This document shows positions 1-6,193 of a stretch of 64,000 nt of DNA, in pieces. Position 1 is the first letter of the stretch. Every line of letters begins with the position of its first letter. The stretch is from positions 1 to 64,000 of the IMG/VR virus record IMGVR_UViG_3300025327_000016; one strand, 5' to 3'. A model generated the notes under the pieces. It ran no database searches, was not told the origin of the DNA, and worked only from the letters and a program-made list of their open reading frames with translations. Both the position numbers and the translations under genes were made by a program. Origin of the DNA: an uncultured virus (IMG/VR IMGVR_UViG_3300025327_000016) (Duplodnaviria; Heunggongvirae; Uroviricota; Caudoviricetes).

Positions 1-640
1 AGCATTACTAACAGCACGACGAACAGCATTACCAATAGCACCACCAACAGCATCACCAACAGTACTATCAACAACATCACTAACAACATCACTAACAGCA
101 CCACGAACAGCATTATCAACAGCATTACGAACAGCTCTACGAACAGCATCATCAACAGCTATCCCAACAGCATTAAAAACAGCACTACCAACAGCATTAT
201 CAACAGCACTACCAACAGCCCTACCAACAGCATTACCAACAGCATTAAAAACAGCACTACCAACAGCATTATCAACAGCTATCCCAACAGCACTACTAAC
301 AGCATTATCAACAGCATTACCAACAGCATTACCAACAGCATCACCAACAGTACTACTAACAGCATCATCAACAGCTATCCCAACAGCATTACCAACAGCA
401 TTACTAACAGCACGACGAACAGCATTACCAATAGCACCACCAACAGCATCACCAACAGTACTATCAACAACATCACTAACAACATCACTAACAGCACCAC
501 GAACAGCATTATCAACAGCATTATCAACAGCATTACGAACAGCTCTACGAACAGCATTATCAACAGCTATCCCAACAGCACTACTAACAGCATCATCAAC
601 AGCACTACCAACAGCACTACTAACAGCATCATCAACAGCA
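1..640. repeat. ~50 tandem copies of a 12-bp unit AACAGCNNNNNN, with a higher-order duplication (1-127 = 397-523)
   Basis: Read directly from sequence. Confidence 0.95.
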
Positions 641-708
641 CTATAATACACAATACCTAATTCGTCTGTTCCTGAACCCGTAGGCCCCTTATATGGTTCA
701 GATAGCAT
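1..708 (-). CDS. Tetrapeptide-repeat (xxAV) protein, 3' end runs off the window; not in the ORF track
   Basis: SD AAGGAGGTG 7 nt before ATG at 708; reads MLSEPYKGPTGSGTDELGIVYYSAVDDAVSSAVGSAVDDAV... with no stop to base 1. Confidence 0.8.
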   Translation of the reverse strand, partial: MLSEPYKGPTGSGTDELGIVYYSAVDDAVSSAVGSAVDDAVSSAVGIAVDNAVRRAVRNAVDNAVDNAVRGAVSDVVSDVVDSTVGDAVGGAIGNAVRRAVSNAVGNAVGIAVDDAVSSTVGDAVGNAVGNAVDNAVSSAVGIAVDNAVGSAVFNAVGNAVGRAVGSAVDNAVGSAVFNAVGIAVDDAVRRAVRNAVDNAVRGAVSDVVSDVVDSTVGDAVGGAIGNAVRRAVSNA

Positions 709-2426: not shown

Positions 2427-2463
2427 GTAGAAAAATGAGACCTGATTAATAAGGGATTGAAAC
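2427..2463 (+). CRISPR. Solitary CRISPR-repeat-like unit 1 (not an array)
   Basis: GTAGAAAAATGAGACCTGATTAATAAGGGATTGAAAC, 37 bp, starts GT and ends ATTGAAAC, intergenic. Confidence 0.75.
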
Positions 2464-2468
2464 TTAAT

Positions 2469-2651
2469 TTATTCATTGATACCCTTCCCTTCTTTTTCAG
2501 AAATGTTTATAGACGAGAGAACTGGAGATATTGAAGAAGATTCAAATACTCTATCAGAGTATTCAAGAGCAATACTTTCTGCAGATGAAAAATTATTTGC
2601 TTTTACCGTAAATGTTACAGGATAAACTATTGTAACTTCATATAAATTCAT
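2469..2651 (-). CDS. Hypothetical protein (60 aa, MNLYEVTIVYP...)
   Basis: Internal ATG of the tracked 127 aa ORF avoids overlap with the upstream gene. Confidence 0.55.
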   Translation of the reverse strand: MNLYEVTIVYPVTFTVKANNFSSAESIALEYSDRVFESSSISPVLSSINISEKEGKGINE

Positions 2652-2655
2652 TGTT

Positions 2656-2877
2656 TTACCACATATCCTTTCTTTTTGTGCGCTCCTGTTCGAGCGCACC
2701 AACCACCTTATTAAACTTATCTTCGGCTGGAAGCCGAAGATGATCAAACCTTTCCTCCAACATCCCCTGTTCTTCAGGGGATAATACATACCCCTGAGCG
2801 AGCTTCTGATGGAGCTCGTGACGAACGATCTCCTCTTCGGAGACCGTTTCAAAATATCTAATTTTGCTTTTTATCAT
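2656..2877 (-). CDS. Hypothetical protein (73 aa, MIKSKIRYF...)
   Basis: SD GGAGGTG before ATG at 2877. Confidence 0.65.
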   Translation of the reverse strand: MIKSKIRYFETVSEEEIVRHELHQKLAQGYVLSPEEQGMLEERFDHLRLPAEDKFNKVVGALEQERTKRKDMW

Positions 2878-2881
2878 ACTT

Positions 2882-3259
2882 CTACACCTCCCTAAATTGA
2901 ATAAATTTAAAGATGGCGGTCTTTTCGACCGTACCATCCGTCAATATTTTCTCTACCGCCTCGCGGCGGGAGGTAGATACTACTACTTTATACCCTAACT
3001 CTTTACACATATGAGTTAAAGTATAAAATAACGATTGTTCCCCCATTACATGGAGGATTACTTGAGAGGGGGATAACCCCTTAATATCAAGGATCTCTCC
3101 TATCTGATACATCATATCCATAGCTAACTTACTAATCCCCTCCTTGTCTAAGGAGGGGTCAACTTGCGGAAACGGCATATCTAATATATCCCCTTTTACC
3201 CCTTCTCTTTGTTCTATTGACCATTTCCCATATGGGTGGTTGCTGATATTAATAAACAT
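2882..3259 (-). CDS. Csx20/Csx15-like CARF-related protein, putative cyclic-oligoadenylate ring nuclease
   Basis: Start reassigned to MFINISNHP (SD GAAAGGAAG); motifs NxSNHP..W..EQ, D.PFP.VDP, HVMGE, STS.R, F.F.QFRE recalled from CRISPR-associated Csx20-like proteins. Confidence 0.7.
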   Translation of the reverse strand: MFINISNHPYGKWSIEQREGVKGDILDMPFPQVDPSLDKEGISKLAMDMMYQIGEILDIKGLSPSQVILHVMGEQSLFYTLTHMCKELGYKVVVSTSRREAVEKILTDGTVEKTAIFKFIQFREV

Positions 3260-3453
3260 ATTTACACTTCCTTTCTTTATCCATAATATCCACCTAAACA
3301 ATACAAACTTAGGTGGTCTTACCAAGATACATAACAGGATGCTTGCACACCGTATGCAAAACACCCTGTCATCCACAGACTTATCTTCCCCACGAACAGA
3401 AAAGGGCAGGTGGTAGATATCCTACCCGCCCACTCTCATCTTCCGTAGAAAAA

Positions 3454-3490
3454 GTAGAAAAATGAGACCTGATCAGTAAGGGATTGAAAC
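3454..3490 (+). CRISPR. Solitary CRISPR-repeat-like unit 2 (not an array)
   Basis: GTAGAAAAATGAGACCTGATCAGTAAGGGATTGAAAC, 35/37 identical to unit 1, intergenic. Confidence 0.75.
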
Positions 3491-3521: not shown

Positions 3522-3551
3522 AAAAAAAGCCGAGGGCTAATGCCCTCGGCT
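3522..3551 (-). terminator. Intrinsic terminator
   Basis: 10-bp stem AGCCGAGGGC/GCCCTCGGCT followed by a T run on the - strand. Confidence 0.75.
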
Positions 3552-3560
3552 AAATCAAGC

Positions 3561-3926
3561 CTAGAAACTAGGCTTGATTTTTCCAGGAGCCTTTTTAGGC
3601 TCCTGGAGGAGCTCACTCACGCGAGCTCCTCCGTACCGTCCAAACTGGACGGTGTAGAGTTTGAACTCTTCACCGTCCTTTATTGTAATCCACGGGGACG
3701 GGTTCCCCGTGTCCCTGGGACCAAGTCCGATCCCAGTCCAGACGCACGCATCTGGGCTGAGATCAAAGATCTCAGCCAGCTCTCCTGTAATAATTACAGG
3801 AGAGCTTACGCTCCCTTTCTCAGCATTAAATCTTTCTATTAGCTCGCCCAAAGGGCGAGCCAATAAACCCTTAGCGAGCCCGATAAGGCTCGCTTCTTTT
3901 TTCCCTTTAACTTCTATAAAGCTCAT
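3561..3926 (-). CDS. Hypothetical protein (hairpin-tiled CDS)
   Basis: 121 aa ORF, SD AAGGAGGT, terminator downstream. Confidence 0.7.
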   Translation of the reverse strand: MSFIEVKGKKEASLIGLAKGLLARPLGELIERFNAEKGSVSSPVIITGELAEIFDLSPDACVWTGIGLGPRDTGNPSPWITIKDGEEFKLYTVQFGRYGGARVSELLQEPKKAPGKIKPSF

Positions 3927-3929
3927 TTT

Positions 3930-4101
3930 TTTACCTCCTTTTGGCAGCAGCTAGATGCCTGCTGCCTTGGATATTGTAGGTGCACATGGGGCAGACAAGG
4001 AACTGAATTGTCAAGATACGCTGTTTGTCTTGACAATGTCTGCCCCATGTGCTTTGCTTTTTAAGGCAGCAGGCAGCTGCTGACTAAAAGAAAGAGGTAA
4101 A
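3930..4101 (-). promoter_or_regulatory. Long nested stem-loop whose base pairs with the SD of the 3561-3926 gene
   Basis: Nested inverted repeats 3930-3937/4094-4101, GCCTGCTGCCTT/AAGGCAGCAGGC, 3982-3997/4037-4052, 4007-4016/4028-4037. Confidence 0.6.
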
Positions 4102-4803
4102 GAGATGAGGAGAAGTAAGGGGAAGAAAGAGGCATGAGACAGAGGGAAGCTAAAGAGGGGGGCTCGAGGAGGCGAGTTGATGGTGGCACCTCCCCTCCCT
4201 CTTTTAGGTGTTGTAGCTGGAGAGCAGAGGGGGTTTAGCCCCTCTGGTCGGGACACTATTATTACAACATCAAGGTTAGTGGGGGGGAATAGTATCCTCA
4301 TGTATAGGCTATCAACTTATACTATAAGGTTAAGTTGGATAGGGAAGAGGGGCCGAAGGCCCCTGATGGGAGCACTAAGAGGTTCTTTAAGGGTTATATA
4401 TGAGGCATAAAATAACTCCCTATATAAGCCTTGAAAGAAAACCCTGGATTAAAGCCATTTGTTTTTGAGAGATGAGTACCAATAAGGTGGTTTTTAAGAA
4501 TGGCTCTACCATTGACTTGAGACTACCTCAGCTACAGGGAACGACATCTAAAGGACAGGCAAAAAATGGCTCTGCTACGTGGTCAAAAACTGGCGTGGCT
4601 ATTGGATGTGGTTTTTCAAACGGATGTTGTATTATCAACGTTGGGCGCCGAAGGCGTAGTAGATAAGGGTAGGTTGGAATAGGAATAGACAAGGGGAGCC
4701 GAAGGCTTGAGGTAAGAGGAAGTAGGGAGGGGGGTGCGAAGCACCCCTGTTGGGAGGAAAAAGGGGAGCGGTAGAGCTAAACAAGCCTCTACCGCTCCGA
4801 AGA

Positions 4804-5849: not shown

Positions 5850-5906
5850 ATAATACCTACTTTCTGCCGCTGTTAAGCGGCGTAATGTCACCCACTTGGT
5901 GGGTGC

Positions 5907-5946
5907 AAAAAAGGGGAAGGGAGAGCTTGTAAGCTCTCCCTTCCCC
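5907..5946 (-). terminator. Intrinsic terminator
   Basis: 15-bp stem GGGGAAGGGAGAGCT/AGCTCTCCCTTCCCC plus T6 on the - strand. Confidence 0.75.
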
Positions 5947-5956
5947 CCAACTTACT

Positions 5957-6193
5957 TTACTCAGAGACCTCGGCGTAGAATGCGCCGAGATCCTCCTTCC
6001 CCTTTATTACAACATTAACGCACTGGCCGAGGTTACTGTGAATGTAAAAACTCGTGCATTCAATCTTTTCAGCTGCGCACGCTGCGCAGCTGGACGGGTA
6101 GGCATAGCCTACCCATCCAGTGAACCCCGCGGGCGGGTTCTGACACCATTCCATGATGGCGTCGTAAAGCTCTCTACCTTTACAAATACTCAT
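5957..6193 (-). CDS. Hypothetical protein
   Basis: 78 aa, SD GAAAGGAG. Confidence 0.65.
   Translation of the reverse strand: MSICKGRELYDAIMEWCQNPPAGFTGWVGYAYPSSCAACAAEKIECTSFYIHSNLGQCVNVVIKGKEDLGAFYAEVSE

Follow-up and report, generated by a model that had tools for sequence, protein, structure and literature searches.

A phage csx20-family gene, predicted to encode a cA4 ring nuclease, lies between two solitary CRISPR repeats oriented against local transcription

A gene of the csx20 family, carried on the minus strand of a tailed-phage genome, lies between two solitary type III-like CRISPR repeats, and its product is probably a ring nuclease that acts on cA4 as a dimer and thereby dampens the type III alarm of the infected cell. 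The gene is intact, its protein belongs to the Csx20 family and keeps the residues conserved there, and its surroundings are those of a phage. Both repeats are oriented opposite to local transcription, and the phage mRNA carries their anti-tag strand. We call the whole stretch of 64,000 nucleotides that was analysed the window, and coordinates given without a locus name refer to it.

The initial annotation had described an open frame for a 125-residue protein with a set of quoted motifs, and the minus-strand translation yields that protein (Table 1); the plus-strand frame over the same interval contains many stops. An SD-like AAAGGAAG stands 7 nt upstream of the csx20 ATG at 3259. An alternative in-frame GTG at 3376, which also has a purine-rich stretch upstream of it, would give a protein of 164 residues, but the alignment of csx20 homologues begins at the ATG. 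When the gene is compared with that of a co-occurring relative (P0155, 72% amino acid identity), 14 of the 25 differing sites listed fall in the third codon position (p 0.016), an excess that is expected for a reading frame under selection. Between the upper repeat and the gene, the minus strand of 3260-3400 folds with a z-score of -3.87, and none of 200 shuffled sequences was equally stable; the hairpins of this leader are candidates for an operator or an RNA structure.

Table 1. Features of the csx20 locus in the window.
Feature	Position	Strand	Basis
Lower solitary repeat, 37 nt	2427..2463	+ (crRNA sense)	Repeat comparison
60-aa ORF without family, ending 5 nt from lower repeat	2469..2651	-	Profile searches
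73-aa ORF without family, directly downstream of csx20	2656..2877	-	Profile searches
csx20-family gene, predicted dimeric cA4 ring nuclease, 125 aa	2882..3259	-	Translation, profiles, model
Weak sigma70-like site (9/12) that could drive + RNA through upper repeat	3261..3289	+	Promoter scan
Shine-Dalgarno-like site preceding csx20 ATG	3267..3274	-	Sequence
Two hairpins / inverted repeats in csx20 leader (upper repeat to csx20)	3290..3376	-	Fold of 3260-3400 minus
Upper solitary type III-like repeat, 37 nt, upstream of csx20	3454..3490	+ (crRNA sense)	Repeat comparison
Intrinsic-terminator-like hairpin closing upstream 121-aa gene	3528..3551	-	Sequence

The phage nature of the window is evident from profile matches to terminase, portal, major head and tail sheath proteins, and the full virus record (G000; 99.8 kb, 44% complete by CheckV) is a fragment of a large myovirus-like phage. 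The identical csx20 gene is found in three further viral records, which represent this same phage and not independent support, and the viral homologues seen come from this phage and one other lineage. The annotation's placement of csx20 amid small genes proved right: the gene is one of a series of small minus-strand ORFs, oriented away from the genes for terminase and structural proteins, and its expression may be early. The neighbouring 73-aa and 121-aa proteins gave only sub-threshold atlas leads, and no RHH or HTH regulator was recognised adjoining csx20. Elsewhere in the same phage genome there is a stand-alone Cas4-like nuclease (L163:7530-8381; PHROG 1706, E 1.6e-25). Two long proteins of low complexity, made up of short Ala/Val-Asp/Asn repeats, are encoded at window 1-708 (minus strand) and at L139:14344-15618, and in the L011 phage an ORF with similar Ala/Val-Asp/Asn-type repeats immediately precedes that phage's solitary repeat. 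Intergenic nested inverted repeats are found at window 3895-4130 and 5904-5959, with 47-nt arms and a perfect 16-bp hairpin.

The protein had been assigned to a Csx20/Csx15-like group, and PADLOC, NCBIfam and profile comparison all narrow this assignment to Csx20. The PADLOC Csx20 profile PDLC01397 is matched nearly end to end (E 1.8e-22; residues 1-124 against positions 1-113 of 114), with CARF_HEPN_CSX20 (E 1.1e-13) and the joint Csx15/20 profile (E 2.5e-12) scoring lower. In NCBIfam the sole family match is CAS_Csx20 (NF040559; E 4.3e-10), and its score of 40 bits, below the equivalog cut-off of 70, places the protein outside the NF040559 equivalog and within the wider Csx20 family. Profile comparison matched a cellular Csx20 that adjoins a type III-family array with a probability of 98.3% over 116 columns. 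The protein has no Pfam match at all. It is distinct from DUF1874/AcrIII-1, as had been claimed, since DUF1874 (PF08960) was matched neither by the protein nor in any of three phage records, with a positive B. subtilis control. Neither Csx16 nor Crn1 was among the Pfam, NCBIfam or PADLOC matches, in libraries that may lack one or both models. A tblastn search of 50,697 records of cultured phages gave no Csx20 match, and searches of PDB sequences with the protein and with its alignment gave none either.

A search of 1.84 billion representatives returned 1,589 homologues at E≤0.001. From 150 listed homologues we built an alignment of 107 rows, excluding fusions and most long or partial matches, and all 107 aligned homologues match NF040559 at E≤0.01. 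Measured against this alignment of its own homologues, the phage protein retains all four invariant and all 12 near-invariant residues, among them N7-H8, G73-E74, R99, K113 and R123. A tree of 49 rows divides into two branches with split support of 100/100, and its finer forks are weak. The phage protein, on a long branch, falls with its relative P0155, a Rhodothermus protein and Csx1-fused domains, and the other branch is of the NF040559 type. The C-terminal Csx20 copy in long homologues belongs to a TIGR02221 Csx1-type fusion in 13 of 13 cases tested; Csx20-Csx1 fusions are also noted in the literature, in the part of PMC8284326 that treats them. In a type III-A locus of Rhodothermus, csx2 is followed by the gene for a homologue with 37% identity.

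Other arrangements of the domain occur in the family. Five proteins (P0006, P0018, P0065, P0066 and P0072) carry two Csx20 domains in tandem, and in another (P0029) the domain is joined to a glycosyltransferase. Two genes of the same branch as the phage copy (L407:1495-1866 and L408:1495-1863) lie directly behind ribonucleotide reductase genes, of class III and a class II-like type respectively, with no cas gene within 1.5 kb, and are probably on mobile elements.

Csx15 is not the favoured family, and the predicted structure matches a CARF/SAVED-type fold, the outcome that the initial annotation had looked for. The monomer model (pLDDT 97.8) is a mixed sheet with a long terminal hairpin, and its closest structural neighbours are SAVED/CARF proteins (top match VIA Z 7.8, rmsd 2.9 Å, 101 aligned). 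The top Foldseek rows from the PDB are Csm6, Cam1 and the Crn1 protein Sso2081, the last a weak match at E 0.016. No structural match reached Z 8 and no PDB Foldseek match reached E 0.001; these middling scores agree in kind, and the model points to a CARF/SAVED-like alpha/beta fold. No Csx15 chain appeared among the structure matches, in libraries that Csx15 entries may postdate. The predicted homodimer scored 0.76 against 0.29 for the best control, passing a mark that 20 of 30 solved homodimers and one of 23 single chains reach, a pass that may reflect likeness to CARF-like dimers already solved. The dimer runs agreed in at least 96% of contacts, with pLDDT of at least 90.

From these features we infer that the phage copy is catalytically active, produced early and acts as an anti-CRISPR. 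The phage would have acquired a ring nuclease of the Csx20 family from the type III CRISPR toolkit, and the CARF-like homodimer would bind the cA4 that Cas10 makes upon sensing phage RNA and cleave it to linear products. With cA4 lost, effectors of the Csx1/Csm6 type would remain off and the phage could replicate. The published section on the cellular enzyme (Hoikkala et al. 2025, PMC12409355) reports that Csx20 degrades cA4 completely in vitro, and cA3 weakly and at high concentration. The protein assayed there could belong to either branch of our tree, which counts against a direct transfer of its activity to the phage copy.

It is improbable that the phage protein binds cA4 without cutting it and so acts as a sponge. 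Csx15 is described as a sponge or a slow enzyme in the relevant part of PMC13148439, where the Pseudomonas protein PfCsx15 is shown to be a sponge, and by analogy the existence of this non-enzymatic member may count against an enzyme here. The match to the joint Csx15/20 profile leans the same way, and the catalytic residues of Csx20 are undefined in those parts of the literature consulted. Against a sponge, however, the near-invariant residues of the Csx20 branch are all retained, and the Csx20 assayed in the section cited above (PMC12409355) is an efficient enzyme. Equally to be weighed, and quite improbable, is a different true target, either another nucleotide signal such as the cA3 of type III or CBASS systems, or a role in phage nucleotide metabolism. 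The reported degradation of cA3 at high concentration, the SAVED domains of CBASS and type III effectors among the best structural neighbours, and the two same-branch genes behind ribonucleotide reductases would suit such a target; the reported preference for cA4 (PMC12409355), the links of the branch to Csx1 by fusion and to type III-A loci by context, and the type III repeats that flank csx20 speak against it. That csx20 is a decaying, functionless passenger is most improbable, since its long tree branch and its score under the NCBIfam cut-off are set against the third-position excess, the intact conserved residues and the retention of csx20 in the same place in a related phage.

The outcome of searches for a host weighs against the reading of the protein as a cA4 ring nuclease, as do the mismatches to the nearest array repeats given below. 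When the Csx20 alignment was run against three genome groups, 29 of 301, two of 251 and none of 101 genomes were matched, and none of these matches indicates the host. The 301 genomes are those of Desulfobacterota that use the repeat family described below, and their 29 Csx20 matches (best E 4.6e-12) are mostly weak-scoring and of the other branch. None of 834 spacers matched the phage, and none of 251 genomes of one phylum contained the solitary repeat within three mismatches.

In its description of the locus the initial annotation was right about the csx20 gene and missed the two solitary repeats that flank it. These are full-length and intergenic, with no partner within 100 bp, as solitary units are defined; the lower one is contained in the 83 nt that separate the 60-aa ORF from a membrane-protein gene. 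The copies are 1027 nt apart and differ by two mismatches, and the first 9 nt of the upper repeat are duplicated at 3445-3453. The pair are the only copies in the 99.8-kb genome and in the three overlapping records, and the next best match to array repeats in the phage genome has 13 mismatches. Their core occurs in at least 131 stretches in species genomes, many of which are arrays. Among the matches listed, the nearest array repeats differ at 5-7 of 37 positions (best 32/37, 86%), and no array fetched reaches the identity of at least 90% to a known array repeat by which SRUFinder recognises such units. Rfam CRISPR-DR8 is found at both repeats with sub-gathering scores (29.1 and 25.5 against 39). 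Loci with matching arrays carry Cas10 in all nine cases tested for a GGDD-bearing ORF, eight of them III-A-like and one III-B-like, and we take the flanking repeats as evidence that the phage meets a type III-A host. A type III-A locus seen in two stretches (L142:7361-9179 and L138), with csm5 missing in the part in view, has a CARF-HEPN gene between two mini-arrays.

The crRNA strand was fixed in three ways, by the sense of the spacers, by the orientation of cas10 and by the handle. With the repeat read in its minus-strand form, 818 spacers read as sense mRNA (Shine-Dalgarno plus ATG, 15 versus 1; purine excess in 47 of 51 loci), and this form is opposite to cas10 in eight of nine loci. The other, crRNA-sense strand ends in ATTGAAAC, which we take to be the type III handle, and it folds into the same short hairpin as host repeats. 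Since the crRNA-sense strand is the plus strand of the window, the csx20 transcript bears the anti-repeat. The DNA sequences beside the repeats, taken as pseudo-spacers, had no second target in the DNA searched.

This polarity recurs in other phages. With a strict pattern, three viral scans covering 9, 67 and 35 stretches yielded one array at a contig end and 12 solitary units from 10 lineages, the lineages being grouped by flank identity only. All 12 units show an upstream purine excess on the anti-crRNA strand, and counts of Shine-Dalgarno sites with ATG concur in 11. With the window phage excluded, the polarity is concordant in nine of nine other lineages (p 0.004), an observation that is new here. 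In these lineages (L151, L152, L164, L171/L227, L178, L189, L215, L230 and L250) the anti-crRNA strand is the upstream coding strand, and several of their repeats lead straight into a Shine-Dalgarno site and ATG. By ORF cover, 11 de-duplicated units comprise seven clear, two half-clear, one convergent and one divergent case, and none opposite. A looser pattern added four solitary hits, three of them with reverse polarity, in a noisy set that includes 16 hits inside ORFs. Two of the sequences (L171 and L227) have a common upstream flank and diverge exactly at the repeat end. An intergenic mini-array in a further phage (L176) has two repeats of the same polarity around a 38-nt spacer, for which no target was found in the DNA searched. 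A check of 10 other viral loci that bear the repeat found csx20 near none of them.

A second repeat family, found in at least 115 stretches, behaves differently: its solitary units split 12 versus 6, with 11 between convergent genes, and a backward polarity common to every repeat family was not upheld. This family (L266-L380) includes dozens of viral solitary units, some of which may be transposon ends. Our literature search found no paper on backward solitary repeats. The table of Camara-Wilpert et al. 2023 (PMC10651486) contains type III units in 37 III-A, 28 III-B and 33 III-D rows, and the two repeats of this phage are not among its entries; neither 'orientation' nor 'antisense' appears as a word in the main text, and no test of a type III Racr was seen in the portions of that article consulted.

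Four readings of the repeats can be weighed against one another, separately from those of the protein. Type III spacers are antisense to mRNA, anti-tag pairing blocks Cas10, and matching spacers can mediate recombination. The first reading, to which we give slightly less than an even chance, is that the repeats are scars, left when phage and host array recombined through such spacers, and have since become neutral. Because type III spacers are antisense to mRNA, a captured repeat would end up in the mRNA strand immediately 3' to the former protospacer; there it would supply an anti-tag and make the former target read as self. The observed polarity follows with no further assumptions, the spacers in that orientation being sense mRNA; the nine other lineages concur, and one phage holds a repeat-spacer-repeat piece of that polarity.

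The relative P0155 bears on the same question. On its contig the interval from the membrane gene to csx20 is 327 nt, against 599 in the window phage, and the shortfall of 272 nt nearly equals the combined length (269 nt) of the lower repeat gap and the 60-aa ORF, both of which are probably missing there; no CRISPR repeat is present among the pieces listed for this relative. The shorter interval suggests, indirectly, that csx20 was present before at least one repeat and may be older than the lower one, as recombination scars would allow, and it disfavours the arrival of csx20 as a cassette between both repeats. Against scars, the relative is known from pieces only, its locus being absent from the viral contigs searched, and none of the 834 spacers matches the flanks of the repeats. 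The two near-identical copies, moreover, lie within 1 kb of csx20, with none elsewhere in three overlapping records, a distribution that resembles selection more than drift.

It is rather doubtful, though worth serious consideration, that the repeats are Racr-type decoys, transcribed from antisense promoters and processed by Cas6 into mimics of crRNA that titrate Csm proteins; the phage mRNA itself would escape Cas6, because it bears the other strand. There is published precedent, as Racrs are described as proven for I-F, I-C and V-A and as enriched beside acr genes in the text of PMC10651486, and the plus strand of the phage repeats keeps the host-repeat hairpin. A weak plus-strand promoter precedes the upper repeat, and the terminator-like hairpin begins, on the plus strand, 37 nt past that repeat, which is the length of a spacer. 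The promoter matches are not above chance, however (eight sigma70-like sites found against 5.0 +/- 2.1 expected), and at the lower repeat a promoter could be accommodated only within a coding gene.

An unlikely reading makes the minus-strand mRNA itself the agent: its 37-nt anti-repeat would pair with the repeats of host pre-crRNA or with crRNA tags and block processing or Cas10 activation. This is the strand that is certain to be transcribed along with the gene cluster, the repeat family shows a single polarity, and the literature yielded no paper on such a mechanism. The action is nevertheless putative, the second repeat family is mixed (12 versus 6), and the same polarity is predicted by other readings. 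That the repeats serve as attachment sites when the phage integrates into a host array, as reported for phage AP1.1 (10.1101/2020.10.09.333658), is highly improbable, given two copies instead of one and given that neither a tyrosine integrase nor a resolvase was found in G000, G001 and G002, each an incomplete record.

Protein and repeats might also work together. In a two-layer anti-type III module, Csx20 would destroy cA4, and phage transcripts complementary to the host repeat (anti-repeat or anti-tag RNA) would jam crRNA maturation or keep Cas10 off, a use of the repeats that would be common to at least 10 unrelated phages; we consider this distinctly unlikely, and if it were true, the backward repeats would be a new class of RNA counter-defence. 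The csx20 gene alone is not new in kind, because a cellular enzyme and phage copies are already published: Csx20 is reported from four phage genomes in the pertinent passage of PMC12409355, and phage csx20-aca14 operons are proposed to be co-opted counter-defence in that of PMC13551039. The idea of phage csx20 as a candidate anti-CRISPR is thus in print, and many such genes exist. Our literature search found no test of a viral Csx20, and if a phage Csx20 were shown to inhibit type III immunity, viral anti-CRISPRs would gain another family of ring nucleases. The polarity of the repeats is the more surprising point. If it holds, the type III solitary repeats of phages are not ordinary Racrs, and they would be either fossils of an escape route, in which a host self tag was stolen, or a weapon made of antisense RNA, and both alternatives would be novel.

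Comparison with known systems places the locus among several of them. The phage protein resembles published Csx20 in its full-length profile match, its size, its conserved residues and its CARF-like dimer model, and differs from the NF040559 type in belonging to the Csx1-fused branch and in its score below the cut-off. With Csx15 it has in common the form of a small CARF-like dimer, an S-x-H motif after strand 1 and the joint PADLOC profile, but the Csx20 profiles score higher, and of the Csx15 set S9, H11, H82, R116, R120 and R123 it has the S-x-H, whereas a spacing like that of R116/R120/R123 is absent. AcrIII-1/Crn2 (DUF1874) is likewise proposed to destroy cA4 for a virus and is of another family, with no sequence match. 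The csx20-aca14 operons also place csx20 on a mobile element with a proposed role in counter-defence; here, instead of a recognised RHH or HTH regulator alongside, CRISPR repeats flank the gene. Finally, the solitary repeat units and Racrs, as presented in the available text of PMC10651486, are lone intergenic phage repeats adjoining a candidate acr, whereas in this phage two copies bracket the gene, both opposite to local transcription.
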